Below, in pieces: positions 42,301 to 63,300 of a DNA stretch of 64,000 nt; within the stretch, counting starts at the first letter, position 1; every line of letters begins with the position of its first letter. A program made the position numbers and the translations under genes. The notes beneath the pieces were generated by a model. It saw only the letters and a list, made by a program, of their open reading frames with translations, was not told where the DNA came from and did not search any database. Origin of the DNA: Candidatus Omnitrophota bacterium (GTDB taxonomy: Bacteria; Omnitrophota; Gorgyraeia; Duberdicusellales; 4484-171); NCBI GenBank assembly GCA_021735655.1, contig JAIPGM010000001.1, positions 32,001 through 96,000 of the forward strand, read 5' to 3'.

Positions 42301-45300
42301 TTGATAAAGTTACTGCGTCGCTTGAAGCTAGGGATTTAGATAAAGAAAGAGTTCAGGGAATAAGAACAGCTTTAGAGATGTTATTTTTAGGCGATGGTTT
42401 TGCTTTCGATCTTTTCGCTGCAGCCGTCTATATGATATCTTATCGAGACGAAAATAGTAGGTATCCAGCTTGGGTAAGCGGGTATCAAGAGAATGTTGGA
42501 AGAGTATACTATTCCAATCATCGTAAAACTCGTTCTCATTTGGGAAGTTTCTATCCTTGGTTGAGCATTCTACCTCATGAAGCCATGCATGCATTTTTAG
42601 CTAGAGCTAATTTAATTGATGGCGGAGCGATCGGTGAGGAGATCGCTACCAAAGCTGCTCGTATGAGCGAAAACGTAATAATTAGAGAGGTAGTTTCACC
42701 GTCAACCGCTTGGGAATCTTACCTGAGAAATCATTGGGGAGAAGTTCAAGATGGCTATTCTCATGATGGACAAGAGGTAGAGGTATTAAATATCAGTTCA
42801 ATGGCCCTACGAGGAATTGCTTTAATTCGTTTTATTAGAAATTTACTTAGCTTGAGGCTATTTCAATTGAGAGAGCTAGCATCTTTAGCAAGAGTTATAT
42901 TATTAGGTACACCGAATACAACTCTTGGTTTAGCATTTGCGCTTGATAATGGAAAGAAACCTACTCGAGTATGGAAAAGAATGCCTAGTTTGCAGACGGT
43001 TTATGAAACAAGAGGCAACAGAATTGACCGTTTTTTCCGAGCCATAATGTTAGCTGAGACTTTTGAACAAGAGGAAAAGGCTGTTAGACTAGCTAAGAAA
43101 ACCCTTAACTCAGATGATTATCTCAAATTAATGAAAAGAATTATGGCTTCAGTTGAGGTTGTCGCTGATGATGATCAGACTGATAGTAGAGCAACTCCGC
43201 TCGACAATGGCCGTTCAAGAAGGGTAATACCTAGAACCTTATCAGTAATTGTTACCTTAGTTGTTTTAGGTTCAACTAAAACAGCCTTTGCTTCAGGAGC
43301 AGTCGCTGCCGGCTCAGCAACAGTGCCTTTTTGGGGTGTAGTTGCTATGATTGTTATGGGGCTAGCTTTTGCATATATGTTTGGTTTTGTAGTTTATAGT
43401 ATGATTCGTAGTGCCAATATTGGCGGCCGAGATGAAATTAATGAGTTAAGGGATCGGGTTAGAGAGTTAGGTGGAAGCAAAGCTTTAAGAGAAGCCGGAA
43501 CCCCTGAAGAACTTATTGGAAATCTAAACAGTAAAGGCCAGGTTAGTGAAAACGAAATAGAAGGAGAGCTTGATGTAGTAGAAGCTCAAATTAGGAACAT
43601 TGAAGAAAGTAATAGTTCAAGTTGGTCCCAAGATCAGTTAGTTAGCTTAGAGGGCTATAGAGATGAATTAAGAAGAGAACTACTTGAAGCACAAGAACGA
43701 TTAAGAGTTTTAGAAGAAGAAATTGCTGGAGATATTCGTGCTTTTGAAAGAGCTCATGAATTAAATGTACCTTATGCAGCAGATGGTGATTTAGAAGAAG
43801 CTCCTCAGCCAAAAACTGTAGTTGGTAGAACACTCAGATTAGCTGGTCAAATTGCTAAGGTAGCCGTGGTAGCTACATTTGGCATAATGGTTATTGCATC
43901 TCCGGCTACCAGTTTTGCAGGATCTACCTTTGGTCAGTCGGCAGATGGTTTGGCTATGGACCATAATTCAGATATGGATGATCAGGATATAGACATGGAT
44001 CATTCAATGGGAGCTGTTTTACCGAACACAGAAACATTAACAACTGATGAAGTAGTTTTTGATCCTTCTTCAGTTATTGATTCTTTGTCAGATCAAGCTG
44101 GGGTTGATATAGCCGACACAGCACATTTTAATAGAGAGCTTAGTGGAGCTAAAGATAAGGTTGTTGTGTTAGATTTTTGGGCTACTTGGTGTGGACCTTG
44201 TAGAGACGTGGCTCCACTTTTAGAAGAAATTGCTGAGTCTGATGATAATATTAGGTTATTGAAAATTGACATTGATGACAACCCTGAAATTTTTAATAAA
44301 TTTAAGGTAGTGGATAAGGTAACTGGCAAAGAATTAGTTCCTCAGATACACGTTTTGGTCCATAATCCTAAAAATGGAAATTGGGAACGAAGAGAAGCTT
44401 TGGTAGGTAAAAAGAGTAAAAATCAGATAGAGGCTAGCCTCAGGCCATACTTAGCTGGTTTGGCTAAAGCTGAAACAGAAAGCGATAAGCCGGCCAAGGA
44501 AGCTTCTGAGGGCGAAGCAAGTAGTGGTCATTTTTCAGTTCCTTCAGGGGAAGCGGATTCTAAAGATTTGGCCGAAAGAAGGATTGATGAGATAGAGAAA
44601 AAACTTGTAGCTGAAAAAGAATTAACTGAAAAGAAAAATAAGGCTGATCAAGCTTTTAGCAGCGGTGATTACAGAGAGGCTGCTGAGCTTTATGAGGAAG
44701 TTTTAAATTCGGATTTAGCTAAGGGAGCTTTAGAAGCAATCGCAAAAACAAAGTTGGCTGTTGCTAAGCAGAAAATTGAAGTAGGCGATTCCGATCAGAA
44801 TATTAAAACCACTGCTGTTGGAGATGATAAGGTAGCTCCTGAAAATGAGAGCTTACAGCAAGTTATAGACCAAGGTTTAAAACAAACATCCTCAGCGACT
44901 ATTAACGAAGCGTTAGTTAAGTTAAGAACATATAAGATTGAAGAAGGTAGCTTGTCTGATGAATCTTATAGAGCACTTAAGGCTGAACAAGAAAAAGCTA
45001 TAAGTTTGTTAGTTCAGAGAGTAAAAGCTGTTACTTTTGCTGAGCTCAAAATGCAAAGAGCAATTGAAGCTTCAAATTACAATAAAGCCATGAATGAAAT
45101 CGGTAATGTTTATGTAGAAACATCTACTGATGGTTTAACTAGAGCAATTACCGATGCTATTAATATTCAAGCTCAACACTTAGAGAGTGTATTGACGGCT
45201 ATCCACGTTGCAGACAGGACAGACAAGATTGATTTTGCCTTGAAAGTACTTAAAGAAAGTAAAGGTAAGAATTTACTCCCAGAGGAATTAGAAACAAAAC

Positions 45301-48300
45301 TTCAACAAAAAGTAGATAGAGCTATTGGCGAGCTCACAGCAAGAAAAGCCACAGTTGGTCAAGAGACTGATTCAATAAGAGCGCCACCAACTGATAAACC
45401 AGCTACTGAAGAAGCAGAAGCGTCCACAGATTATTCAAAGGTCGGTATTGAGCAATTGACAGAATTGGTAGATGCTAAGATTAAATCTCAACTTTCTCCG
45501 GAAGAGAAAAAAGTTTATGAGGCAAACAAAAACAAGTTAGATTATTTAAAGAAAAATCATCCGGATCTTTTTAAGAAACTTGTTGTTATTGCCGAAGACG
45601 ATATAAAGGCTTGGTTCGAAGCTAACCAAAAACCAATTGTTCAAGCTCAACAAACAGAAATACATAGAGCCGAAAATGTTCTTAAGCAATTCTTAACAAG
45701 ATTTGGCATAGAGTTTAATCAGCCGCGCTATGTAATGGTTTCGGAAAAATTACTTGATGGTCGCTTGGGCGCAGTTTATATTTTATCTCCGGATACAGTT
45801 ATTCTATCTGATAAATTTGAAGTTAAGCAGAAGGTTAGACCGCAAGGAAGGTCTCAGGGACGAAGCCTAGTCGCCCTTGAACCAGCTGGTTCAAATATCG
45901 AAGCTGCTAATCCTAATGAAAATTCTTTAGCTATCGTAGTTATTCATGAGAATCTTCATTTAGTTAAAAATTCTGGTTTAGGCAGCGATCAGATTAACGA
46001 AGGATTTATCCAACATACAACTGATATATTAGCAAAGCAAAATAATTTTAAAGTATCTCACGATCTATATGAACCGCAAAAGGCAGTTATTTATGCCTTA
46101 GAGGCAGAAATAAGTAAAGTTGCCGGAGTAAGCTTAGCTCAAGCTTACGATATGGTAGCCAAAGGATACTTATTAGGAGATACCAGTTTTATTTCAGCAA
46201 ATATTGGAGAAGGCTCCTGGGAAGAAATTGTTAGTATTTCTAATGAATATAGAGATAAAATGGCTTTTGATAATAATCCGTTGCTTTGGGATAAATATGT
46301 ACCTAGAGTAGCTAAAAAATTAGGGGTTAATGACGAAAGCTTAAAAGATCAGCCTAGAGGTTTGAGAGAGAGAGCTAAGCAGTCAGTGGTTGAGTTAGCC
46401 GTTGTTGTTGGAAAAGTTCAAGAGTCTGACAGCGTAGAGCCCGAAGTATCAGACCAAGAGTTACCTAAAGAAGAGGTCAAGAAGGCTGATGGTGATCAAT
46501 CTGTAGATGCTCAGGTTTATTCTTCAGCTCGAGGATTGAATTTAAAGGATAAACAAGAGGGCGAGCAGTTGCAGCAAGCATTCGCAAAAGCAGTTGTTGG
46601 CAATAATGTACCTGAAGAAGCGTTTGTTGTTACTGGCGATACAGATAAGAATTTTTCTGTTAAAGGCAAATTAAGTAATGAAGATGTTGTTAGTTATAGC
46701 ACTAAGAAGATATCTGAGCGCCAAGAGCAGGGATCTCTTACTGCTGGCAGTTTAATAAAGGTAAGAGAGGTTGGTGGAGATAAGAGTTTTCTCTGGCAGA
46801 CACATTTGGGTGATGTTTATGAATTTAAGGCTGACGGGACAGTAAGTAAACTTATTGATGCACGTGATCAAACGGCCTCTAAAATTAAGGTAAATCCAGC
46901 TGAAGAAGGATTGCTCGATACAATAGGCAGGCATGCTTATGAACAGATGCAGAGAGGAATTACGAAGGGATCTATTTTTAACTCTCAAGAGGAACAAATA
47001 GGTTTTTGGCAGAGAAAGGATAATAAAACTATAGCGGTTATTTATGCAGCTGCTGGCGAAAGAAAAGGTTTCGATGTAAGTTTTACTGAAGAAGTTCGTT
47101 CGGTTGAAGAGCAAAAAGCCAAGAAACTTGCTGATGACCAAGCTGCTGAAAAAGCTGCTGAAGTTAAGAAAGCCGCTGACGCTGAAAAACTTGCTGCTGA
47201 AAAAGCTGCTGAAGCCAAGAAAGTAGCTGATGCTGAAAAACTTGCTGCTGAAAAAGCTGCTGAAGCCAAGAAAGTAGCTGATGCTGAAAAAGCTGCTGAA
47301 GCCAAGAAAGTAGCTGATGCTGAAAAAGCTGCTGAAGCCAAGAAAGTAGCTGATGCTGAAAAACTTGCTGCTGAAAAAGCTGCTGAAGCCAAGAAAGTAG
47401 CTGATGCTGAAAAAGCTGCTGAAGCCAAGAAAGTCGCTGATGCTGAAAAAGCTGCCGAAGCCAAGAAAGTAGCTGATGCTGAAAAACTTGCTGCTGAAAA
47501 AGCTGCTGAAGCCAAGAAAGTAGCTGATGCTGAGAAAGCTGCTGAAGCTAAGAAAGTAGCTGATGCTGAAAAACTTGCTGCTGAAAAAGCTGCTGAAGCC
47601 AAGAAAGTAGCTGATGCTGAAAAAGCTGCTGCTGACAAAAAGATTGCTGATGAAGCTGCTGCTAAGAAATTAGCTGATGAGGCTGCCGCTAAACCAAAAA
47701 CCCAAAATGATGGAGCTAGGGGTATTCGCGCTCCGCCAGCTGCGGAACCAAAGGTTGAAGATCAGCCACTAGCTAAAGCAGAAGAAGCAGTTAGCCAAGC
47801 AATGGAGAAATTGGTTGATGCTGCTAATGCTTCAAATGATGCTGCTAATGCTTATTCCGAAGCTACCAGCAAAGAAGCTGAAGATAAACTTAATAAACTA
47901 GCTGGAGAGTTTGCTCAGTTAGTTTTAGCTAGGGATAATCAAGATGATCAGGTTGTTGACAACGATGGTCAGGTAAAGGCTAAGGAAGCCGAAGTAAGCC
48001 AGAAACAGAAATCAATAGCCGAGCAAGAGGAAAGATTAGAAAAAGCTCTTACTCCTCCAGAAATAAGTGAAGATTGGGAACAGGCTGCCAAGGAGAGGTT
48101 TGGTAAATATAGCCATAATTCTAGGGGTAAATATAATAAAAATAGATTTCATAGCCAGACTCGCACAGTTCCATCAGTAGCTTATGATCAACCAGAAGAA
48201 GATTTTCGTAAAGGAATTCATGAGGTTGTCGGTGAAGGCAAAGAAGCCGCTGCTTATGTTGATACTTCAGTAGTTCATCGTGGTAGTGAAGCGCGTGGTG

Positions 48301-51300
48301 CTGGTACAGTAGTTTTGATCTTTGCTGTAGATAAAAATGATTTTAATAAAAGAGTTTTAATATATGTTGATGCCAGCCGTAGACGCGGTATCGATTATAA
48401 TGATCAATATTTTGACTTAGAGGGTAATCAAGTTGAGCCTTTTGGAACAAGTGATAGCTTAATCATTAGGGTTGGCCAAGTTAGTTCCGACAAAGATGGA
48501 GAAATAAGCTTAGATTGGGGTGAACCTTACACTAGTTCTCGTGGCGAAATTAATGATATTTTTGGAAAATATAAACCTGAAGGTGAATTCGTGGCTGGAT
48601 CAGAAGCTCAAGCTAGCGAGCGATCAGCCAAAGATTTACAGGAAGAGTTAGAAAAAGCCGAAGGCGAATTAGAAGCCCTCAAGAAAGCTAAGGAGGAGTT
48701 AACTGGAAAGACAGCTGAAACTGATGAAGAATTAAAAACTAAACAAGCTGAGATTGAAAGATTAAAAGAAAACTTAAAACAAAGACAAGCCAAAGCTGCT
48801 GAACTAAAAAGCGAAACCGCTAAAGCAGTAGATTTGTCTATAGAGGCGCAAGATATAGTTAAAAAAGTTATAGAGGCCAAAGATGCTCCGTTAGAGGATA
48901 GGATTAAAGATCTTGATCAAGCTATTGACTTGGTTGATCAGGTAGCTGAAGTTGCTAGAAGTCTTTCAACCGAAGCGGATAATGAAGTAAAAATAGCCGA
49001 AGGCTTGGTTGATTCAGCTAAGAAAATTGAAGCCTATGCTATTAGTTTAAGAGAAGATGCTGAGAGGAAACTGGCTGAGGTAAAAGCCGCTGAAGAGGAA
49101 GCCCAAAGACAAGCCGAAGAAGCTAAAAAGGCTCAAGAAAAAGCTGAAGCAGAATTAAAGGTCAAAGAAGCTAAAGCCAAACAAGCTTTAGCTGAAGAAG
49201 ATAAGGCTAAGGAAGAATTAACCGAAGCTCAAGGTAAAACTGAGAAAGTTACCACTACCCAGACCGTAAGGGTAAATATTAATAAGCCGCGTTGTTGTTT
49301 AGTAAGATTTTTTATTGATCGTCCAAGATTTGTTCGTGGTTGGGTGCAAGATGGACATTCACGTCGTTGCGGCAGACAAACTTACCGTCAAGGTTTCTAC
49401 CCTGCAGAAATTTACGTAGAAACACTAGTAGCCGTAGATACAACTGATTTAGAGAAAGCCGCAGCTGATAAAGCTGAAGCAAGAAAGACAAGTGATGTGG
49501 AAGTTGAGACTGCTAAAGGAGAGGTTGAAGTTGCTTCAACGGCTACCCAAGAAGCTGAAGCTAATTATAATCAAGCAAAAGCGCAAAGGGAACAAGCTGA
49601 AAAATATTTAGAAAGAGCTAAAGAACTTGAACAGGCAGCTACCCAATGGCGCAAACAAGTAGAAAAAATAGCTCAAAGAGCTCAAGAGTTAGTTGACCGG
49701 GCTCAAGAATTGGAACAAAGAGCAAAAGAAGCAAAAGAGGCCATTGAGGCGTACAAAAAGGCTCTTTCTGAAGAAGAAGGGAGCGGTCAGCCTAAAGGGC
49801 CTGAAGTAGGATCCTTTTATGAGAATCATCCATTTTGGTTTTTCTTCTTACTTTTAACCCCCGGATATCTTTTCGGAATATGGGCTGCTATACGTCGTCG
49901 AAAGGGACTTTCAATCATTCCTGGACGAGGAAAAAAAGTTGTTATAGCTCTTATTGCTGTTGGATTAAGCTTAGCTTTGGCTGATAAGGCTTCTGCTGCA
50001 GACGTCAGCTTAGCAACTATGGCTGTAGAGAGCTACATGACTTTACAGAATACTACTGGTGGAGTTACTGGTTTTGGAACTGGTTATGCATTAGGAGAAG
50101 CTACAGTAGCTTTATTCTATTGGTTGTTTGGTAATAAAGATAAGACTGAACAATCCCAACCAATCCAACCTCAAGCAGATCAAGCCCCTTCTAGTCGCAA
50201 GAAAGGAAAGAAAAAAGTTGGGCCAGAAGTAACTGAAGAGTCTGATTCTGTTGTACATGAAGATGGTGATAGTGAGGACGGTGAAATGGGTTCTGGAATT
50301 GCCACTTCAAAAGGCCGGAAAGATAGTTCGCAGTCAGCACTTTCAGATATAAAAGTAAAAGCTGAATTAAGTCCTTTAGGCAGACAGGTACGTATTATTA
50401 TTGCTAGTAAGCAGGGTACCAAGAAAGCTCTATTGGATGAGATTTTTGATTTAGCAAATCTTCCGATATTTATTGCTACTGAGGAAGGAAGTTTCTATAT
50501 TTACTATAACCCACGAACCAATCAGTTGATTATTACCGCTGAACGAAGCATTAGTAATAATCCGGCTAGTGTCGGTATGGTACCGGTGAGTTCATACGGC
50601 CAAGCAGCGGAATTAGAGACTCTTTGGGAAAGTGAAGATGGGACTGAAATGGCAGCCCTTGAGGGCGAAGTTGATGACTTCGATGATGTTACTATAAACA
50701 ATATTCGTGGCATAAACAGTTATCTTACTCATCGTAACAGTATTGTTATTATTACCAGTGCTTCTGATCCAGAAGCTTACGTGCAGGATGGCGAGGATAC
50801 AGTCAATGCTGTTATAATCCAGTCAAGTAGGCGAATTGTTCATAACTCAGTTTCCTTGATGAATGCTCTTGGTCAGATAGAAGAGGTTAATGCGTTCTTA
50901 ATTTTAGGGACATCTTCTGATTGGATTACTACAGATGAAGATGGTAGAACTTTTATCCATCGCGCAGTGAAGTTAGTAGGTCGCGATGGTAATCGTATTC
51001 GTATGGTCGTTTTGGATTTTGATCAACCACTTGAAGTTCATTATGGAGTAATTCGTTTGGGACGACCGACTAACACTAAAAATATTCAGCATACCATAAT
51101 ACCTTTATCGCGTAAGCTTGGTTATGAATGGATTGCAAAACATAAAATTGCCGCCAATTTAGTTTTAGTTGATGCACACGTCGCTGTTCCGGATAGCTTT
51201 TCGTTTGTCCAAGATGGTCATGAAGATACGCCATGGATTAAGAGCGCACGTAAGCCTTGGACTATTCGAGGTCCACCCGGTTCGGGTATCCAATGGTATG

Positions 51301-54300
51301 AAGTAGCTCCGGGGACCTATGTTATGTTTGTTCAGGGCGCAGGTCGACAAGCCCGTATCAGAGCTGCGGTTGAGAATTTCGTTGCTACTCATCGGGCCGA
51401 AGACGGAACAGCTAAACCAGTTGTTGTCAAAATCGCCGATGGCTCACAGGGTGTAGGTATAGCAATGTTCGGTGTCGAAGAATACGATAACGAGTTAGAT
51501 TTTATCGATGATGCCGTTCAAACTATCCAGGGTTTTCTTAGTGAAGGTCACAGTGTTATGCTTCAAGAACGTGAAATACCGGTTAATGTTGCGGTTAGTG
51601 GCCAGGATTCAAATTATCGTGTCTTTATATCTCGCAAAAACGGAAAGCCAGTTGTAACCAAAATTGTGGTCCGTACTGGTCCTTTTTCGAATGATCCAGT
51701 TAACATTAGTCAGGGTGCCGAAACTATAAGTTTTGAAACAGAAAGCTACGCGATGCTTGGTTTGACTAGCGATGAGCATGCTCGTAAGCGTGAAGCTATT
51801 GAGTCAGCAGCTTTAGCAATGTTTAAGGCTTTAGATGCACAGGCTGATAATGATGCTCTTTATGAAGAAACAGAACGTAGCCAACAAGATTTTGCAAGTG
51901 CCGATATAATTGTTGTTGAAATTGAAGATGCTAACGGCGTTAAGCAGTTCCATCCTAAGATTATTGAAGGCAATGGTACCAATTCAGGTGGTTTTTGGCA
52001 TCTTGATGAATACTATAACAGTAGTTATAGCAGTAAGGGTCGTCAAACAACCGAAAGGGGTTTAGCTATCAAAGAATATGCTGAAACCATAGCCGCTCGT
52101 GCCCGCGCCTATCGTCAACGCCTTGAAGGGAAAGAAGGGGCAGCATACCTTGAACATCTTATGACTACCGCTGTGCAAGATGGCAATGGTTTGGCTGTTT
52201 CTGAAGATATTGCAGTTGATGAAGCCGAATATGATGCAGCGGTTGTTCTTATCGGAGGCTATGTTGATTCTCAGGCCTTGGCTATTTTACAAGCAGCGAC
52301 TGAGAGTGATCCTGCAGTTGCTTTTGTTTGGGTTCGTTGGTCTGGTGAGCTTCGTCGTCGGAAAGGTGTATTATATGTTCAGGATGGCGTTCGCTATCGC
52401 GAGGGCAAATTAGAAGCAGTACACTATGCAGCACCTATTGCTGTAGGTATGGTGCATGCTGCTGGCACTGTCAGCAATAAACAATTACGTAGATTAGGCA
52501 TAACACCACGTACTTGGAATACACGTGTTGAATTTTATATGCATCATAAGGCAGCTACTGCTTATATTTTACGTCAAGCTGGCGTATCAATGCCGAAAAC
52601 ACTTGCTTTCTTGCCGGGTAGTAACAGAGGGCCAGCTCTATTACGCGACGACCCCGATACAGTTATTGTATCTAAGAATGATTTACGTAGAAGAAAAGCT
52701 GCTGTTCGAGTAAGGATACGTCAACGCGTAAGTGAACTTTCAGAATTCACCACTGGCGCTATTGTTAAGCCGGCTAACCGTTCACGTAGTGAAGGCGTTG
52801 AAGCAATCCCTTATACTGGAACCGAAGCAACCATCGATGCTATTACTGATATGATTATGGCTCGTTTGCTTAAAGGCGAAAGTCTTATTCTCCAGGAAAC
52901 ACAATTAGCAAGATCAATCGATGGTTTATATGGTATCGGAAAAACTAGACACTTGGTACGAGCCTTCGGTATGATTGATCCGGTAACTGGGAAACCAGTT
53001 GTTTTTGCCATCAGATTTGATCCAGGACATATGCCGATCGGCGGAGCCGATAGTATTGTAGTTAACGCTACCCGTCATACCTTGACTGCTGATAAGTACC
53101 ACGGTTATACACTTGAAGAAGTTGCTGCTATGTGGGGTATGGATCCGGAAAGCTTACGCAGCAGCATTGAGCAGTTATTCATTGATGCAGTTACTGCAGT
53201 TGCCTCAACGGTTAATCCACGTGGTGTCAGTCAGGCTTGGATTACGACCGATATGATTATCGATGAAACAACCGGAAAGCCGGTTCTCGTCGAGATGAAT
53301 GGTCGTCGTTCAGCTCAAATCTTTGGTACTGAGAAGCACAGATCAGAACTTGCTCGTTCAGGAAAGGCTCCGGCACGTAGTTATACTGCTACTTTTACTG
53401 ATGCTTTAGCTGCGAAGGCCAAGAAACACCTTAAGGTAAGTATAGAAGAGACTTCGACAGCAGCAGTTCCTTTAGACAACGGAAGTAGTCATAGAGGATT
53501 GTCTATACCGGTATTTTTAGCTGGAATTTTAACTTTGGGTTTAACAAATATTGCTTCGGCTGCCGAAAAAGGGCAAGCAACTAATTCAGATAATCCGCTA
53601 TTTGCTTTATTTTTAATAGTTGCTATACCTTTAGCTGTAGCAGCTGTTGTATTCTTATTTGCTATAGATTGGGATTATTATTTTGGTAAATTAACCAGGC
53701 AATCGCCTCCCAGCGAGAGTGAAACCTCCCCGATAGGGGATGATAGATTAGAAGTTGATGGGGCTAGTTCATCCGTGGCTGCTAGCCCTACTTCTTCTAG
53801 CCATAGGGATGAGCCTCATCGACCTCTTGACAACAACTCTGGAGAAAAACGAAGCAGATTTTCTTTAAGATCTCTTTTCGGTGGAACAGCAGATAGCTCT
53901 TCAGCTTCTAGCTCTGCTAGTAGAACATCTCGAGAAACTCGTGCACCACCAGTTTTAAGAATTGTAATAGCTTGGGCTAGCGCAGGTAACATAGCCGCAT
54001 TAAAGGCTTTAGTCGAGCGTATTAGGCAGGATTTAATTGATGGATTACCTTTTGATGTTGTAATTGAAGAAACAGTAGTCTTAACTAAATTAGATAAATA
54101 TAACCAAAGTCATTTAGGCGCAACCAGAGATTCTAGCGTTGGTCAGTATATCCTTCCTTGGCCAAATTTAAAAACTAAAGCTAACGTACCTACCTTAGTT
54201 ATTACTGATGCTGATTTGGGCGGAACATCTGAAGATGATTCTGGAAAACGATCAACAAATAATAGCCTTATGGGCAGGACCTATGCTTGGCAGAATATAG

Positions 54301-57300
54301 CACTGGCCACTACTTGGAAATTCCGCAGTTCAAACCAAGGTCTATCAGATAGAAATAATCGCAATAACATATTACATGAACTCGGCCATCTTTTTGGAAT
54401 AAATCATGAGTGTGGCTGTAAAACCTGTATTATGCATCAAGCTGACTCAACCGAAGAAGTGGCCCGGACGAAACAATTTTGTAAGTCTTGTAATAACGAA
54501 TTAACTAAAATAAATGGTGTTAAATCTAAAAAAACACCACTTGATAACGGTAAACAAACTAGACAATCGTCTCCCAGCGATAGATTAGAAGTTGATGGGG
54601 CTAGCTCATCCGTGGCTGCTAGCCCTACTTCTTCTAAACCTTTGGATAATGGAATATTCGGAGTAATGTTTAGACAAAGAGCCACAAGGATTGATGCTGA
54701 TGGCCATGGTAATTGTTCTGCTGTGACTATTTGGGCTAAGAGAGTTGAGGCTTGGGATGGTTATTTTTCAGAGGGAGAGTCTTTTTATATAGCAGGTATT
54801 GAAGATAGTAGCGATTCATTAGGAGAAAGTACAGATCCTAGGTATGTACGAACTGTAGAAAGATCGGAATCTTCAGATAGGTCTCAAAGAATAGTTAAAG
54901 TAGAAGTCGCTGAGGGTGAATTCACGATTATTGAATTAGAAGACGGATCGGTTATTGCTCATGCCCATATATTTCCAAGACAGGGAACGGCCGATACTGC
55001 TTATTGGCAGCTTATTAGAGTGTTGGATTATTTTACCGACTCCAGAAATGGTTTTGATCAAGATAGCTTAAGAATTGCTTTTGGTTGGGAAGAACGTTTA
55101 GATGGATTTGGTTACGATGCAATTACTTTTAATAGAAGGTTGTTTAGAACTTCGGATTATATGGGGGATGGTCGAGGGCCAGTTTATAGTTCAGCTATGA
55201 CTTGGGATCAACAAGTCGCCGCAGCTGGTCTAGTCGGAGTATTACCTAGTGGTACCGAGCGCATTAATGAGTTAGAGCAGTTGGCCAGAGACAAAGGCTT
55301 TGAAGTTATTTCTTCAAATACCCGTCAATATACGCCAGATCCGGCAGGTTCCGGACAGGGGATGACCGCAACAGATATTAGCGTAACATCTAGTGATTAT
55401 TGGTTGTCGCATAGGCAGGCAGAATTTAGATTTCATTTACGCTTATCAGAAGATAAAAGACCGTTAGATAATGGTAAAGAGAGTGATTTACAGATTCCTC
55501 TTGATAATGGCCCAAAAGGACAGTCTGAATTAGCGGCTAATACCTTAGGCTCTCTAATTGCCGGATTAGTCGCTGCACTTCCAGTTGTTGGGTTGGTGGC
55601 GGGCGCCTTAGCTTTAGTAGTTGTACTTCCGCCGGCAATAACAACAACGACCGCAGTAGTAGTAATCGCAGTAATTGCGGCAGCAGGAATCCTATCGCTT
55701 CCTTTTGCCTATATCTCAGTAATGTTTTTGTCACAAGGCTTAAGAATTGCCATAGCTAATGTTGTTCATGGCGGCATAAGAGGCCCTACTGCTTTAACTG
55801 AACCTATTGCTACTCCGGGCAGTAATGTTTCAAGAAAAATTCCTGAATCAATTATGCCTTTAGCTCTAAGACATTCCATTAACCAGGTTCATGAACAAGC
55901 CCATCGTGATGGAAAAGATGAGCTTGGTGCTTATTCTGCTCAAGCAAAAGATTTCTTGGCTAAAGGAATAAAAGTTTTAATTCATCTTGGATTACTAATC
56001 GGTGCTACTAAATTAGTTTGGATAACTGGTTTCGGTAGTTTATTTAATGTATTTGTTCCAGCTCTCGTGGTCTTGGTTGCTGTTTTTTACCTATGGAAAG
56101 ATTTAAATTCCTTAAGGGATAGTCAGCCAATTAAACTTTTCTATGAATCTCGGGTTTTACTGACTCAAGCTGAAAGTTTAGCCATTGGCACATTTGTTTC
56201 AGCCCGTGGTGTTCAAAGCCAAAGGGTTGGGTTTGCCGATAGAAGCTTAATTGATTCAGTCTCTCGAGTAGTTACTAATCCAGTTTTAGTAGTAGCTTTT
56301 GTTTTATTAGGAATTTCGGTACCGTTAACTGGCGGAGCAAGTTTCTTCAGTCTAGCTGTATTGCAAGGTGCTCTTTTTGGAGTCTTTGCTCCTTATTTGT
56401 TTAATGTGTTATGGAATTTTTTCTGGGATCATGCTCAGAAGGATGATTACCTGCAAAAAATAGCCGAAGGTTATAAAGCTAGAACACTTTCAACTAATAA
56501 TTTGAACGAACTAGATAGGTTAGTTAAGCTTTTTGAGGATGGTTTAGCTAAGGCAAATAATTTTGAAAGAGTTTGGTTTAGGCTAAAGAGCTTTTGGATA
56601 ATAGGATCAGTAAGACTTCCAGCCTTAACCGGACCAGCTAAATTTTTGATAGGTAGGTTACAGTTAGTTTTCTGGGGTTCAGTAATAGCTCTAGGAGTTC
56701 TTCCTTTTGTTGATCAATGGTTATTAAATATTTTTGGAGTTGGGGCTGAATTTTCTTTGCTCAACCTAATTGGTTATGATGGCGTTAAAGATGGCGCTGC
56801 CAGCTTGAGTCTTTCACATACAATCGGTGGCTTAATAAGAACTGGCATAATTGTAATGTTGCTTAAGATTTTTAGCCGTAGATTTTCTCAGCTTAGGAAT
56901 AATATTCAAAATAACCGACTAGCCAATGGTAAGGATATCAAATTAGGTTCTTTGAGCGCTGGGTACTTAATTAAGAATTTTGATAGAGTAGATAAAGATT
57001 CAATAAAGCTAGCGCTTGAGCGGGGTTTAATTAATCCTTCAGGAATTCCGGCAGCTAAGGCGCTATTACGCGAAATGCTTGGAACTGAAGGCATAAACGT
57101 TGTTAATCCTTCAGTTTCCGGGAAGTTATTCCATCAGTTCTTTTATTACCTTATTCCCGATGCAATAACTTTTCTAGTCGTTATTTCTTCGCCGATATCC
57201 GGTTTATTGTATTTTTTACATAGAAGAGTACTTAAGAATTTAAACAATGATTTCAGTGTAGCGCATCCTTATTATTCTTTATGGCTTATGCAGGGCCGCG

Positions 57301-60300
57301 AGTATTGGGTAAGTTTTGGGCATATGTGGATAATATCAGCTGAGATTGAAGCAGTTGTCGATAGCGGCGATTATCTTGCCGGACATCAAGTTTTAAAGCA
57401 TGTTGGTGGTCAAGAAATAGGTCAGATTGCTCATCTCTTAGAAGGTAAAAATGGAGCAATTTCTTGGGGTGGCCATATTTTAGGATTAGTAGAATCTTCT
57501 TTAGGCATAAGCTTGGCTCAGGTTGCCCATAATGCTTTAGGTGGTGAAACTGATGTTGTAGCTTGGCAACAAAGCAACCAACTCAAGATTCAAATTGACA
57601 CAATAGAGTCGTCTAAAGATTTTAAAAGAATACATTCTAGAGCGAATGCAGAAGTTTTGAAGAATGCTGATGCCCTAGAGCAAATGTTTTCCTTTGAGGC
57701 AGAACGGAATGAATTAGAAGAATCGGTAAGAGTCCATGCTCGCAGTCTCCTTTATCAAGCTGCTGCTAGTAAAGAAGCGCACGATAATGTGTATGATCAA
57801 GATGGAAAGCTAAAACTTGATTTAGCAGTAGAGATTGTTGCAGCTAGGGTCACCGGTAGTATTTTAGGTAGAGTATTTTCAATGGGTCAATTTGGTGGCA
57901 GCAGTTCCTTGGGTAGCGAAATAGAAGTTGTGGTTGATGGGGACGCTGATGTGGTTGGATCAGAACCAAAAGTAGTAGCTGCTCCGTTAGACAATGGAAA
58001 GCCAAGCGAAAGACCGGTTGTTGATTCAGAAAAGGTAGATTCGGTTTCACCAAACCAGGCAGAGGGTTCTACGGTTGAAGATAGTTCAGAGGCTAAGGCT
58101 TCAGATACAAGAGAGGTCAAACAGTCCAGAGCGCCACCTGAGGAATCAAAGGAAGGTCTATTAACTCGTTTAAATAGAGGAATTTTCCGCAAAGTAGCTC
58201 CGGTCTTATTAAGTTTGCATATTGCTTTTTCACCGATAACTGAGTACTCTTTAGCTAGCTATTTAGAAAATCAAAATCAAGCAGTTGCAGTTCAAGTCCA
58301 GGAAGTTGACTCATTAGGGACGGTAGTTGATTATAGCCGTAGTCGAGACGGAAGCGCACTGAATGAAGCAAGGATTAAAGCTGAAGTTGAATCAACTCCG
58401 AGTGAAGCAGTTGATTTTGAACGGATTAACCGCGGCGGTGAACTGGATAAAGCTCGAGGATTTTACCAGACCCAAGGTCTAAAGGCTGCTTCGGATAGTT
58501 TTGCCGAGTATTTCAGACAACCTGGTAAGATTAGAGTAGGTGATTATGATCGATTTACCGGATCAGTCTATAATGGCAAATTATATCTATCTGAAGATAC
58601 CTTAGATGATTCTTCAGAGTTAACTCTTACCCTAGTCCATGAAATTGGAGCTTTCGCTAAAAGAACTCATGCTCAAAATAAAGCTATGGAGTATAAGTTC
58701 TTGGTAGCTGAAGGAAAAGTTCCTGAAATTGCTTTAGAGATGGATCCGGTATCTCGAGAAGTTGTTAAACTTAAACCAGGAAATACCATAGCGATTATCG
58801 AAAAGCCTAATGGCGATTGGGTTGCTGTAGGTAAAGATGGAAAAGAAACTGTTATATTTGGAGCATCTATCCAGGTCGCCGAAGGGGCTAACCCACCTTC
58901 AGCCTATGGTGAAAATAAGCCAGAGTTACCTTATCGTAACTTACACGATACTGACAGAGTAAAAACTGAAGATGGGAAAAATCTGACTAGTGTTTTAGAT
59001 CAAATCGGATTAAACTTTCAGCACTTCTACCTGATGACTAACCCTACTGCTGAGCAGTTAAAGATACTAGAAGGGATAGTAACAAAGGCAAGAGCAAGGG
59101 GTGTTGAAACTATGGTTACCTATTGGGCTGGTCAGCATACTAAGAACATTTCTTTAGAAGCTGAAATTAAGCAGGCTTTAAATATTCCGGCCGAGAGAGA
59201 TTTGACTGAGTTTAACTTAAGGCCGGTTGAGGATTGGAATAAGCTTACTCAAGTTAAGCAAAATCAATTAAAGGCCCAATTGGGTATCGCTGCTACTGAA
59301 ACTGTAAATGAAATACAGATTCAAAATCTTTTAATGCTTGAAAGCTGGAGTCAAATACCAGCGGCTCGGCAAAAAGAGCTTAGAGCCCAGATTGGTATCA
59401 GCGAAGCGGCCAAGTTAAGTATAGACCAGATAGATACGCTTTTATTTATCAATCTTTGGCAAAGTTTGCCGGTAGCTAAGCAAGCAGAGTTTAGAGGACG
59501 CTTAGGCTTTGAGGCTACCGAGAAACTCACCGATATCATGCAGATTGAATCAGGTCTATTTACTCTTTATAATCCTACCGCTGAAAATAAAAAGTATATT
59601 GTCGATCAGGCAAAGATGGTTGCCGAATGGGCCAATCAAGTTGGCGTTTTTGTAAAGATTGCTAATGAAATTAACTACTATGATAAGAATGGTCCGGTTC
59701 TTGATCTTGCAAAGATAAATCCAAACCAAATGGTCAATTTGTTTCCTCATCAGTTATATAAATTTTTAAACGAGGAAATAGCAGTATTGTTTAATAAGGA
59801 TAAAGTTTTCTTAAGCTTAGGAAGGTTAGATGTTCCTGGTTTTGAAGATGAGCCATTCTTAAAAGATAATCTTTCAAATTTCAAAGGGTTGGCCTTAAAC
59901 CTTTATCCTAACTGGGATCCTCAATTTGGCGGCTCACGTGAAACCGATCAATTATTTAGTTCGATAAACTATAGCCGTGGAATCATTGGTAGCATGCAAG
60001 CAGCAGCAAGTTTAAGAGTTCCAGTAATAATTTCAGAGTGGGGCGAGTCTTCATATTTAGCCGGCATTGCTAAAGCTATAGGAATTGGTGAAGTTGGTCA
60101 GGCTCTTTTTGCCCGAACTTTTTATCAGGGAATTCTACCATTTGTTGCCGGAAATAGTGATCCTAAATATGCTGATCGAACTCAATTTCCGAAAGTTATA
60201 GTTGGTGCGATCGTCTATAGTGGTGCTTACGAACAAGGTTGGCAGGCCACCTTAGATCCAGCTGAGCCAGGGTTGTCATTTACCGAAGTTGTTGACGCTT

Positions 60301-63300
60301 CAGATCCTTTAACTGTAAGAGTAAAACCGTTTGCTTTTGAACTTGCAAAGATAAATGATCTTTTGCAACGCATGGTCCAAGGGTTGGCAGTTGAGCAGGT
60401 AGTGGTTCCTGAATTTACCGCTAAGCCAAAGGCTAAGGTTGACCGAAGCCACGAAATACCGGAAGCCGAAATAACCAGGCCACTTGATGCTGCGGCTGTC
60501 GTTGAAATTTCTCGTGAGTCTCAAGCAATCCAATATTCTAAAGACAATCCTAAAGAGCCAACAGTTGTTTTATTGACTAAAGGGGTTGCTCGTCTTGATC
60601 CAAAGGTCATAGCAAGTAGTCTTTCTGGCATTGGAAGAGTATTCTTTGGGGATGATCCGCAACTTATTAGAGATTTCGGTGCTGATAATCTTAAAGAAGG
60701 TTTGTTTGAGGCGAGAGTATTACTTGACGGAAAAGTTATTGCAAGGCTTATTACTGAATCGGGTTGGAAAATTAGCGATCAGAGCAGAGTAGTTAAAAAT
60801 GGCAAGCTAGTAAATGAAAAGACTGAAAGAGATGGAAGCTTTGTAATGCTTGAACAGGTTAAAACAGCTGAAGGTTTTGTAACTAATGGGTACTATATTT
60901 TTGATGCTGACAAATCTGAATATCTGCATTTAGAGAATTTAAATATACGTAATATTGATGAATGGCTAGCCATAAGAGGAAATTTCCCTCAGTATAACTT
61001 AGCTAGATCCGTTGGGGGAACTACTGATGTAGAGTTTGTTCGTGTTGAGATTGATTCTGCCAATAAAAATATAATTATTGATTACACGAGAATTAATAGC
61101 GGTAAACAGGTTCCTCTAACTTGGTCAACGGTAATTAGTCGTTTAACTGCCACTGCAGAAAGCACTGAAGCCGTCACCGCTACAGATATGAAACCGGCTG
61201 AGGATATGCTGGATAAGTTGTTACAATTAATACATGATGGCAAGTTTCATCGAATATCAAAACAACGGGGTAGTCGCGCAGCCCATAATCGTGAGTTACG
61301 AGCCAATTGGCTTGATTGGGATTTAAGAAGACATACTGGCATGAATTACTGGGAAGTTGGCTTACCTAATCCAATCCAGGGTTTTGCAATTATTACTAGA
61401 GCCGGATCACGCGGACAAGTAATATTCCTTTCCGATACTGCGACTGACGCTAATCTTCAAGCAAAAATACTTGGTAATTATGATTTAAGATTTACCCCTA
61501 GCGGAAGAGTTCAATTTAACTTGGAAGGTAAGTTAGTTGAGTTGCCTTCAGTATCGGATTTGAGATGGGCCTTACGGAATATTAATTTTTCAGGAGCAAG
61601 AATAGTTGGTGAAAGCCCTGAAAAAGGAATGGATATTTTAAGTGCCGAGATTCCTTGGTACGGTGATAATTTAACATTTTTGGGCGAGAAGTTAGTTTCT
61701 AAGGGTGAGGCAGTAACTATGGTAATGCTTCACGATCGTGATCGTGGTGAAGTATCGATTAAGATTTTAGTTGGCGTTACTCCGCCGGAAGGTGGCGAGG
61801 CCAAGCTCGACTGGAAAGAGAAATTCAATAATTTAGTTAAGCGTGACGGCGCAAGTTCGAAATATCTTTTTGGTGAGGTGCCTTTAGTTGAAATTAATTT
61901 TGAGCGAGTTGGGCCTAATACTTATCGGGTGATGGCTGAGGTTGATCCGGTATATCCCGGTTTAAGAAAAATAAAAGACGTTAAGGTTGAGACTGCTGAA
62001 GATATGGCCAAATTAGTTGAAGCTACTTTAACTAAGAAGGCTATAGAGGGAGTTGACACTGGCTTACGTATCGTTACCAAGGGTAAGTATTCTTTACTTA
62101 TTCGTCTTGATAAGAATACCGGAGACCCGATTGAGGGAGCAATTGAGAAATCAGCAAAAGGCTTAAAAGCAGCCTCGCGACTTTTCGGTAAAACTGAATC
62201 ACACAAGACCTTTACCTTTGAGGAAAAACTTGACCCGCGAACTGGTCGAAGCAGCGATGTGGCAAGACTAATAACTGATAAGACTGACGCAAACTGGTTT
62301 GGGCTTTATATCGTTGAAGATGTAACTCTTAGGCAAATTATTGCTGCTTTTACTGAAAATGGCACACTTTCCGGAATAAACGGCGTTGATAGTGGGTTAA
62401 GAGCCTTACAAAAAGAAGTAAATGTGATTGTAGTTGACGCTCAAGGGCGTCGCACAACCCAAGAAGTTACTCGTAGCTTATTCTTACGCTTTGATTTAGA
62501 AACTAAAAAGTTAATTGAAGGAATTGTTCAAACTGAGGATCCTAATACTGATAGATTGCGTCCGGATAGCCTTGAAAAACGTCAAAAGGGCCAGAGAATT
62601 ACTGATGATGATTATTACTGGTTTGTCCGCGATGTCAGAGAGCCAAAACCGTTTGATTTTGAAGGTGCTATACCGTTAGATTCTGGACGCATCATAATTG
62701 TTAATCGCGAGGATCCTAATGTTCCTGGGCTTTGGTATGTGGTTGATGCTGAGGCTGGCGATATAGTCTCAGCTTTCCGTCAGAATGGATCATTAAGAAA
62801 TATTAGAGGCCGGGAAACTGGTTTCCGAGCTTATCAGACTGAAGTTACCTTACGAGATGGTGATGGAAAAGCTATTTTAGATGACCAGGGCCAGGAAGTT
62901 AAAGTAACTCATACTTTACTTTTCAGGTTTGAGTTAGATGATCAAGGAAGAATTATGAAAGATTCTTTGGCTGAAGGTGTACTCCAGGCTGAGACTACTG
63001 AAGCTAAATTGCGTCAAGGGAAAGATGGCAAAGATGAAACTAATGATTATTACTGGTTTATTAATATGTCTAAAAGCCTTATATCGTTTAAGGTTACCAG
63101 CTATGATCAAGGTAAGTCAGTATTAATGATTTCTCTGCCGGAAACAGAAGCTGACAAAGATGGTTGGCGTCCAGTTAGAAGGTTAGAGGTTGATAATGCC
63201 AATCAGATTAAAGATTTAGCTGAAGCCTTAAAGAGAGCAGTTACTAATAATGATTATAGCGAGCTGGGTGAGAAAACTGACACACGGATTAAGATCGTTG

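Follow-up and report, generated by a model that had tools for sequence, protein, structure and literature searches.

A stretch of 64,000 nucleotides from a metagenome-assembled genome (MAG) of a Candidatus Omnitrophota bacterium (assembly GCA_021735655.1, contig JAIPGM010000001.1, positions 32,001 to 96,000 of the forward strand; referred to as the window) contains a giant open reading frame (ORF) of at least 42.6 kb, in which a direct DNA repeat lies on either side of a peptidase module. The repeat represents a linker between modules that is disordered and has been duplicated; it carries a conserved junction motif, PLDN(G/N), and flanks an embedded metzincin with intact catalytic residues. 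The motif is over-represented, is conserved across related giant ORFs, is located at module borders, and is under selection at the level of amino acids; it outweighs the repeat in importance. The best explanation that we can offer for the whole, and one to which we give an even chance, is that the linker contains a probable processing site and that the embedded peptidase, a member of family M54, is a candidate for the processing enzyme. Note that the ORF of the window and every related giant ORF are incomplete.

A duplicated linker flanks the peptidase module

An earlier note on this DNA had placed the two copies of a direct repeat at 53697 and 54561. The existence of the repeat was confirmed by a DNA repeat search, a gapped alignment and shuffled controls; the similarity starts 12 nt further to the left, at 53685 and 54549. 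The repeat search yielded two pairs of segments, namely 53742-53810 and 54579-54647 (69 nt, 91% identity) as well as 53685-53719 and 54549-54583 (35 nt, 83% identity), which the gapped alignment joins to a single repeat unit. This unit consists of a 30-nt lead-in (GGTAAA...CCCAGC) with 25 identical positions, a 27-nt insertion that is confined to copy 1 and encodes ESETSPIGD, and a 58-nt core (53742-53799 and 54579-54636) with 57 identical positions. The only mismatch of the core is synonymous (AGT/AGC, Ser). The five base differences of the lead-in change two amino acids, and the PLDN codons 3' of the two cores show three synonymous differences. When up to three mismatches are allowed, the window contains exactly two matches to the core pattern (with zero and one mismatch), and it was not found in 100 shuffles. 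With the exception of two riboswitch copies, the other non-tandem repeats of the window have 60-73% identity.

The starts of the two copies are 837 nt apart, which corresponds to 279 codons; the copies are therefore in frame. As previously noted, they encode similar peptides, GK(L/Q)TRQS(P/S)PS...DRLEVDGASSSVAASPTSS. The repeat was also recovered when the giant protein was compared to itself. In the protein self-BLAST, residues 10775-10824 match residues 11063-11096 with 62% identity and an E-value of 9e-9, and this is the sole near-identical internal repeat. The claim that each copy is followed within about ten codons by PLDN(N/G) holds as well: PLDNN (53823) is found eight codons after copy 1 and PLDNG (54639) one codon after copy 2. 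Another PLDNG (54537) is located immediately before copy 2. The linker regions are disordered, as judged from an AlphaFold2 (AF2) model of the peptidase, whose flanks have a predicted local distance difference test (pLDDT) score <50.

The embedded module is a divergent archaemetzincin

The peptidase module comprises the 238 residues between PLDNN (53823) and PLDNG (54537). It matches the Pfam family PF07998 (Peptidase_M54) with 36.4 bits, which exceeds the gathering cut-off of 24.4. In contrast, its score for the NCBIfam archaemetzincin model NF033823 is 52.5 bits and thus below the cut-off of 145, which characterizes the module as a divergent archaemetzincin. The zinc-binding signature HExxHxxGxxH/D, which had been reported to lie between the two copies of the repeat, is indeed present there as HELGHLFGINH (residues 11005-11015 of the giant protein). 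The Met-turn and the four cysteines of a second metal site (C-x4-C-x-M ... C-x-x-C) correspond to CGCKTCIM and FCKSC. The residues H, E, H and G, the four Cys and the Met are invariant among nine homologs (C197, C202, M204, C220 and C223 of the module), and the Cys and Met residues align to those of 2x7m and 3lmc. By sequence, the module is most similar to three archaemetzincins of the PDB (2x7m, 3lmc and 3zvs).

In the AF2 model, which was based on an alignment of nine homologs, residues 41-233 are confident; residues 1-39 and 234-244, which carry the linker ends and the PLDN motifs, are disordered. A Foldseek search of the PDB placed archaemetzincins (2x7m, 3zvs, 4axq, 3lmc) on all of the ranks 1-5, with E-values between 1e-9 and 2e-6 and target TM-scores of 0.58-0.73. 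The module is thus predicted to adopt the metzincin/archaemetzincin fold. Taken together, it appears to be a divergent member of M54 whose catalytic apparatus looks intact.

The tetrapeptide RAPP occurs four times in the giant ORF (residues 8006, 8789, 10860 and 12256; nt 45378, 47727, 53940 and 58128), compared to 0.1 expected occurrences. In L002, L003, L005, L006, P0001, P0002 and P0005 (related loci and proteins are designated by L and P numbers), the embedded peptidase has a conserved N-terminal edge with the sequence RAPPxLRIIPA. This edge may be the point at which the mature peptidase begins, or else another type of site.

The PLDN(G/N) motif delimits modules of the giant ORF

PLDN is found ten times in the giant ORF, although only 0.14 occurrences are expected from the composition; nine of the ten are PLDNG. 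LDN[GN] occurs 12 times in the frame of the giant ORF and does not occur in the five other frames of the window. The synonymous codons used for P, L, D, N and G differ from site to site, which indicates that selection acts on the peptide and not on the DNA. In the window, N-G is followed by different residues (R, K, S, I or P), and no Gly-Gly was found. All sites (residues 6183-12208) occupy the same part of the ORF as the hydrophobic helices, about 20 of which lie between residues 6294 and 11952. In the first 6,180 residues, searches for Pfam matches, transmembrane (TM) helices and junction sites found none of them. The earlier note had not recognized the significance of PLDN(N/G): this module-delimiting motif is the main content of the locus. 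The features of the locus and the peptidase brackets of four related proteins are listed in Table 1.

Table 1. Features of the window and motifs that bracket the peptidase in related proteins.
Feature	Position (nt)	Strand	Remarks
Giant ORF	21375..63998	+	at least 14,212 aa, continues past the window end; first ATG at 21375, stop-free frame 21363-63998; host of all parts
PLDN(G/N), ten sites (starts)	40932, 41892, 43197, 53469, 53823, 54537, 54639, 55461, 55497, 57984	+	span 40932..57998
ALDNG variants, two sites (starts)	39906, 42939	+	
Signal-peptide-like + TM module	53469..53822	+	118 aa; begins at PLDNG 53469-53483; tail is repeat copy 1
Repeat copy 1	53685..53801	+	lead-in GKLTRQSPPS, insertion ESETSPIGD, core DRLEVDGASSSVAASPTSS (53742-53799)
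PLDNN junction	53823..53837	+	N-terminal border of the peptidase module; sole P-type site with N in place of G
M54 zinc peptidase, folded core	53943..54521	+	HELGHLFGINH 54375-54407, CGCKTCIM 54411-54434, FCKSC 54477-54491
PLDNG junction	54537..54551	+	C-terminal border of the peptidase module, 15 aa past CxxC
Repeat copy 2	54549..54638	+	GKQTRQSSPS, core DRLEVDGASSSVAASPTSS (54579-54636) and K; 34-aa spacer between two PLDNG sites
PLDNG junction	54639..54653	+	opens the next module
Module X	54654..55460	+	269 aa; ends at the double site PLDNG (55461) ... PLDNG (55497)
c-di-GMP-I riboswitches, four	4517-4628, 13196-13283, 14782-14870, 21060-21253		above the Rfam gathering score; each just 5' of an ORF
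Peptidase bracket, P0001			GLDNGG ... PLDNGG
Peptidase bracket, P0002			SLDNGG ... SSDNGG
Peptidase bracket, P0005			SVDNGG ... CSDNGG
Peptidase bracket, P0008			... TFDNGG

A PLDNG site forms the exact start of three modules that are homologous to one another at the level of protein and of DNA (residues 6524, 7279 and 10703; nt 40932-41180, 43197-43445 and 53469-53690). In each of them, PLDNG is followed by a basic stretch, a hydrophobic helix, an end made up of small residues (VQA, AFA and ASA) and a second helix. By our own reading of the sequence, this arrangement looks like a Sec signal peptide with a membrane anchor. The 118-aa module that precedes the peptidase contains hydrophobic segments at residues 10713-10731 and 10750-10768.

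Module X, which follows the peptidase and the second linker copy, has a single homolog (P0003; 36% identity). It gave no match in Pfam or NCBIfam, and its AF2 model, with a pLDDT of 42, is unusable. Module X and P0003 share the sequences AHAHIFP(R/K)Q and GW(E/D)E(R/D)LDGFG(Y/F). In P0003, the relative of module X follows a different region that contains HExxH and is not an M54 domain.

Related giant ORFs contain the same motif

A word-indexed protein search and searches of genome contigs and metagenome contigs found no close ortholog of the 722-aa region. By means of HMMER, 21 distant relatives were identified among 1.84 billion representatives, each of which matches single modules only. The best of these matches are peptidase modules within long multi-enzyme proteins, where they are bracketed by xDNGG. 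A scan of GTDB genomes with the module alignment yielded seven bacterial loci, all from MAGs of Omnitrophota or 'Planctomycetales', and one stand-alone archaeal gene (L008). Six of the seven bacterial ORFs run past both ends of the locus, the longest of them with at least 6,792 residues; L004 stops just after the peptidase module. The scan of metagenomes yielded 56 loci, which comprise the giant ORF L009, the giant ORF L016, whose motif is different, and 54 ORFs of smaller size. The motif is missing from the 52 metagenome loci that are stand-alone genes of M54 size (up to about 300 aa) and likewise from the archaeal L008. A profile search of a set of 5.8 billion proteins with the M54 alignment found mostly stand-alone archaemetzincins.

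The C-terminal border of the peptidase is xDNGG in P0001, P0002, P0005, P0008, L001, L003 and L005, and SRDNGS in L009. Sites are located on both sides of the peptidase in the window (53823 and 54537), in P0001, P0002, P0005, L001, L002/L003, L005 and L009. In L007 only the upstream site is present, and L016 and P0006 have other motifs. The giant ORFs that the scans found in MAGs of Omnitrophota and of the Planctomycetes-Verrucomicrobia-Chlamydiae group contain 2-14 sites each; the count is 14 for L003, 9-10 for L005 and 11 for L009. In L002, L003, L005 and L009, no other short peptide is as over-represented as LDNGG/LDNGS. A logo of 69 non-identical sites reads [S/P][L/F]-D-N-G-[G/S], and the surroundings of the sites are unconserved.

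Other recurrent peptides were observed in some relatives. The M54-bearing L016 contains [S/A]SSP[V/A] 23 times in 3,430 residues, and the same peptide occurs seven times in P0003, which was found through module X and has no M54 match. P0006 contains PRTNGS four to six times. The junction motif thus seems to exist in lineage-specific 'dialects'.

The sites are located at module borders

According to the Pfam coordinates, all of the 29 sites in five proteins are located outside of domains, although the domains cover 43% of the sequence (p ~7e-8). The same is true for the 11 sites of L009. In most cases, a site is 7-30 residues away from the edge of a domain. For example, L003 and L005 both contain a complete PGI (HMM positions 1-486) that is framed by two sites, and the sites lie 10-60 residues away from the enzymes that they frame. 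In L009, the sites are located 12 residues beyond each end of a complete hexokinase. Modules of the types HAD, HPr, response regulator, PFK, PGM and LpxC are framed in a similar manner. The short pieces between two sites comprise 29-31 residues (L002, L003), 72 residues, or, in the case of a TM-hairpin of L003, 117 residues. The pieces of about 30 residues and the TM-hairpin mirror the 34-aa spacer and the 118-aa TM module of the window.

The relatives contain several enzymes (PGM, PGI, ROK, radical SAM, hexokinase), and the neighbours of the peptidase vary among them. It is found between PGM and PGI, in front of TAL-TK, between HAD and small modules, and between a HATPase and a hexokinase. 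Internal duplications of the relatives have their ends at the sites. Residues 721-829 of L003 recur at 2588-2696 with 83% identity, and the corresponding sites are 723/826 and 2590/2693; the duplicated blocks of L005 end at the sites 4303 and 5235. As in a polyprotein, a short site thus recurs at the borders of modules and outside of folded domains, and a protease is flanked by such sites. In a Pfam scan of about 32,000 residues, i.e. the scanned parts of the window ORF, L003, L005 and L009, M54 was the sole protease, and neither C39 nor S8 was found.

A possible mechanism of processing

We propose that [S/P]-[L/F]-D-N-G-[G/S], here P-L-D-N-(G/N), serves as a proteolytic processing site in disordered linkers. 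The giant product would be cut at this motif into pieces that have the size of enzymes or modules. The embedded peptidase, which has one site on each side, would be freed by the same cuts, and it is a candidate for the processing enzyme, which would act first in cis and then in trans. The layout of the window would then be read as follows: PLDNG, the signal-peptide-like and TM module with linker copy 1, PLDNN, the peptidase, PLDNG, a 34-aa spacer formed by linker copy 2, PLDNG, module X, PLDNG, 12 residues, PLDNG, and a multi-TM module. We think it about as likely as not that the sites are cleaved. That the M54 module does the cleaving is, in our estimate, somewhat less likely than not.

Several observations are in favour of a processing site and of the embedded peptidase as its enzyme. 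The D-N-G core is invariant within a linker sequence that is otherwise free, the sites frame enzyme-sized units with natural-looking termini, and the modules that follow sites in the window begin like signal peptides. Moreover, Asn-Gly is chemically labile; it is the dipeptide most prone to deamidation and is normally avoided, so that keeping it calls for a function. The peptidase has a site at either end, an arrangement that is also known from viral polyproteins and MARTX toxins, and it is the only protease that Pfam detects in the residues scanned. Due to the positive-inside rule, the basic residues between site and helix suggest that the sites are on the cytoplasmic side, where a peptidase without signal peptide would be located.

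Other observations weigh against this proposal. Further M54-bearing giants use PRTNGS (P0006) or [S/A]SSP[V/A] (L016), and L007 and P0009 have few sites or none; either the specificity of the peptidase drifts or it is not the enzyme that does the processing. In L005 and L009, large parts with several domains contain no LDNG sites. We know of no established endopeptidase substrates of archaemetzincins, and the score of the module is below the NCBIfam cut-off. In the AF2 model, the flanking motifs are not docked in the active-site cleft; as the flanks are disordered, the model is uninformative with respect to specificity. Cleavage itself is deduced from sequence. Due to the incompleteness of the ORFs, a C39 or S8 protease may be located outside of the parts seen. 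Finally, the nucleotide identity of the core could have a different cause, namely a strong hairpin.

Alternative explanations

The repeat might be a neutral scar, that is, a linker copied in the course of an insertion or rearrangement of the peptidase cassette; LDNG would then belong to a flexible or insulating linker, and the protein would stay whole. This would agree with the different neighbours of the cassette in different genomes, with the duplicated blocks that end at the motif, and with the near-identical DNA of the core, which is as expected from a recent event; moreover, cleavage is only inferred. However, a mere spacer does not explain why D-N-G is invariant and preceded by [S/P][L/F] in many diverged ORFs whose linkers are otherwise free, and the retention of a deamidation-prone Asn-Gly needs a reason. 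It also leaves unexplained that the sites bracket a protease with intact catalytic residues and that signal-peptide-like starts follow the sites. We consider a neutral scar unlikely, but it deserves to be taken seriously.

A second possibility is that the sites are processed and that M54 is mere cargo. The cuts would be made by a C39 or S8 peptidase, by the product of a separate gene, or autocatalytically at Asn-Gly via a succinimide. C39 and S8 domains are reported to be common in the giants of Omnitrophota, and the Gly-Gly at the end of xDNGG recalls the double-glycine leaders that are cut by C39 peptidases. The dialects of the motif differ among M54-bearing ORFs, and the incomplete ORFs are also compatible with this explanation. 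Yet the C39 variant fits the window poorly because its sites lack Gly-Gly: there is no second Gly in the window, and no C39 match was found in the window ORF, L003, L005 and L009 as scanned. Furthermore, the site of L009 has the form DNGS, and the conserved core is L-D-N-G and not G-G. The about 32,000 residues of motif-bearing ORFs contain neither C39 nor S8 matches, and the uncatalysed cleavage of the backbone at Asn-Gly in a disordered linker is slow. Processing by one of these routes, with M54 as a bystander, is in our view quite unlikely.

The 58-nt core can also be regarded as a nucleic acid element, as it is an imperfect palindrome. The calculated RNA folding energies of the two copies are -22.9 and -24.9 kcal/mol (z ~ -3.5), and with respect to stability the hairpins rank #5 and #2 among 14,193 sixty-nt windows of the ORF. 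The lone difference between the cores (U/C) is at the top of the stem and keeps the pairing (G-U versus G-C), and the extra 27 nt of copy 1 contain another small hairpin, CCCCGAUAGGGG. The core might have been kept as a hairpin that acts as a ribosome pause, as a processing site of the >42-kb mRNA, as a recombination hot spot, or as a selfish palindrome similar to the Rickettsia palindromic elements (RPE). On the other hand, there are just two copies in 64 kb, which have the same frame and orientation and adjoin one module. When the repeat is left aside, the other junction sites show no enrichment in structure (p 0.18), and a single substitution is too little for an assessment of covariation. 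A role of the core at the level of nucleic acids is judged to be very improbable.

It is barely conceivable that the 58-nt repeat misled the assembler into stitching in a peptidase cassette that belongs to another place or another strain. The DNA does come from a MAG, and the only second assembly (contig 1123 of Logan SRR12088349) ends at ~47,200, before this region, but the frame is kept across both junctions, the arrangement site-peptidase-site is found in at least ten independent assemblies, and there is no break in composition.

Known types of motif were compared to the sites and rejected. The sites do not constitute N-glycosylation sequons; most of them read N-G-G, and Asp is at position -1 and not at -2. 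The order observed here, with the motif first, then basic residues and then the hydrophobic helix, is the reverse of that in a sortase-type signal of the LPxTG kind, and the sites of the relatives precede cytosolic enzymes. Ribosome skipping of the 2A type would involve NPGP, which is absent, and is to our knowledge not known in bacteria.

Origin of the duplication

The earlier note had interpreted the repeat as a linker that brackets an inserted or duplicated domain cassette. This is correct in so far as the linker is disordered, the M54 fold is self-contained, and its neighbours vary. However, the peptidase module and its neighbour are not tandem duplicates, and the module shows no compositional anomaly. 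The repeat had also been taken as direct evidence for the growth of the gene by module shuffling. Given the varied neighbours of the cassette and the internal duplications that end at the motif in other giants, rearrangement of modules at the junctions is credible; to call it direct evidence for gene growth was an overstatement. The collections searched yielded no ortholog that either has or lacks the cassette, so that the event may have been an insertion, a duplication or a gene conversion.

Specific scenarios were rejected. A tandem duplication of linker plus domain is not compatible with the comparison of residues 10821-11059 and 11093-11367, which show no similarity at E <=0.01 and only a 22-nt match at chance level. 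The profiles of GC content and skew have no clear break at the cassette, which speaks against a foreign origin. For a target-site duplication of a mobile element, a repeat of 58-115 nt is too long, and in the 837-nt interval nothing but the peptidase module is encoded, with no transposase, integrase or homing endonuclease. The junction residues PLDN|N and PLDN|G are not intein-like; an intein would have Cys/Ser at its start and His-Asn plus Cys/Ser/Thr at its end.

The lead-in and the PLDN codons are more diverged than the core, which suggests that motif and lead-in are older and that the core is recent. The near-identical core has the look of a local duplication or of gene conversion that took place recently. 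If the two cores recombined with each other, the peptidase would be lost through an in-frame deletion.

The giant ORF and its neighbourhood

The giant ORF has the properties that define the giant ORFs of Omnitrophota: it belongs to an Omnitrophota genome, it is a single ORF of more than 20 kb, and it encodes multiple TM helices. The taxonomic origin is reflected in five proteins encoded upstream, which are exact matches to proteins of an NCBI MAG named Candidatus Omnitrophica/Omnitrophota bacterium (MCF7907275-296, locus tags K9L86_). Besides M54, the only Pfam domain above the gathering score in the 14,212 residues is a thioredoxin domain (58 bits; residues ~7581-7687, nt ~44100-44430). At the far end of the visible ORF (61902-63992, residues 13514-14210), the protein contains successive diverged repeats of ~105-140 residues with 27-34% identity. 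A tandem repeat with a period of 18 nt (six residues; low complexity of the AEKAAE/KKVAD type) is located inside the ORF at 47105-47688. The Logan assembly SRR12088349 (contig 1123) contains the same locus and ends, 8,612 residues into the giant gene, near this repeat, which probably reflects an assembly break.

Genes of a Tad pilus are located in the neighbourhood of the giant ORF. The vicinity of giant ORFs and Tad loci is a described trait of Omnitrophota (PMC10066038). The fourth of the c-di-GMP-I riboswitches of the window (21060-21253) lies 120 nt 5' of the first ATG of the giant ORF. The riboswitch copies at 13195-13248 and 21059-21112 are 93% identical. Judging by the positions of the riboswitches, the giant gene and several of its neighbours in the Tad locus appear to be controlled by c-di-GMP. 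The ORF 13324-14652 lies 3' of a c-di-GMP riboswitch, gave no match in Pfam, and contains repeats with a period of 54 nt (18 residues) at 13735-14162.

Comparison with known systems

The embedded module shares its fold, HExxHxxGxxH, the Met-turn and the four cysteines with the archaemetzincins of family M54, such as AmzA of Methanopyrus kandleri (2x7m), the enzyme of Archaeoglobus fulgidus (3zvs/4axq) and human AMZ1/AMZ2. The known archaemetzincins are stand-alone proteins of ~160-210 residues, and the stand-alone M54 loci fetched here are of this kind and lack the motif. In contrast, the module of the window is embedded, bracketed by the motif, has a RAPP edge, and scores far below the NCBIfam cut-off.

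The closest bacterial analogue of the proposed mechanism are the MARTX toxins of Vibrio. Their embedded cysteine protease domain (CPD), which is activated by InsP6, cuts inter-module linkers after Leu and thus releases the modules and itself. Both systems are very large bacterial multi-module proteins with an internal protease and a recurring linker site. MARTX toxins differ in the type of protease, in the site, and in their cargo of secreted effectors, and their cleavage is proven; here, a metzincin is combined with housekeeping enzymes and membrane modules, and cleavage is a prediction. In viral polyproteins, the protease (picornavirus 3C, flavivirus NS3, retroviral PR) is flanked by its own sites, the sites follow a short grammar, and spacer peptides and internal signals are present. 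The window resembles them in the protease between sites, the motif at borders, the small spacers and the signal-like sequences after sites. Unlike these, the locus is cellular and bacterial, longer by orders of magnitude, and encodes a metalloprotease; there is no evidence that it is viral. The Rickettsia palindromic elements have in common with the core a ~60-nt hairpin repeat that is translated in frame within a disordered segment. However, the element of the window has only two copies in the 64 kb, which are adjacent, co-oriented and tied to one cassette.

The giant ORF shares several traits with the described giants of its own phylum ('Archaeovorins', the dockerin-type and the 'multi-enzyme metabolic clusters'), which also exceed 20 kb, have many TM helices and few domains, and neighbour Tad loci. 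The relatives found here belong to the multi-enzyme type. The existence of giant ORFs in Omnitrophota, their multi-enzyme content and their suspected cleavage are already published. For their processing, C39 or S8 peptidases have been proposed, and the cleavage points were stated to be unknown (bioRxiv 10.1101/2023.11.21.568195). In the window and its relatives, by comparison, M54 and a junction motif are found. Our literature searches revealed no paper on the junction motif or on an archaemetzincin within a polyprotein, and the accounts of Omnitrophota giants that were consulted mention neither M54/PF07998 nor a junction motif.

Implications for giant proteins and archaemetzincins

Taken by itself, the repeat is a modest finding, an ordinary case of a linker that was recently duplicated; it is of value because it leads to a grammar of junctions that is worth testing. 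Whether the Omnitrophota proteins of 10,000-147,000 residues act as one chain or as cut parts is an open question, which becomes testable by means of a border motif and an intact protease. The motif, which occurs at module borders in related giants, is a testable candidate for the points at which giant proteins are cut. With its help, the ORFs could be split in silico into mature products, which would then serve as input for annotation and structure prediction.

In its most far-reaching form, which we regard as possible and still somewhat doubtful, the proposal is that the Omnitrophota giants are true bacterial polyproteins, which comprise an operon's worth of enzymes plus membrane modules and are cut at [S/P][L/F]DNG[G/S] (or at lineage-specific dialects such as PRTNGS or SSSP[V/A]) by an embedded archaemetzincin that releases itself. 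If this were true, the duplicated linker would be a freshly copied cleavage site that creates a 34-aa spacer peptide beside the protease. It would also suggest a substrate for the archaemetzincins, for which no function is known in any group from archaea to humans, and this would be the first physiological substrate for an orphan family.

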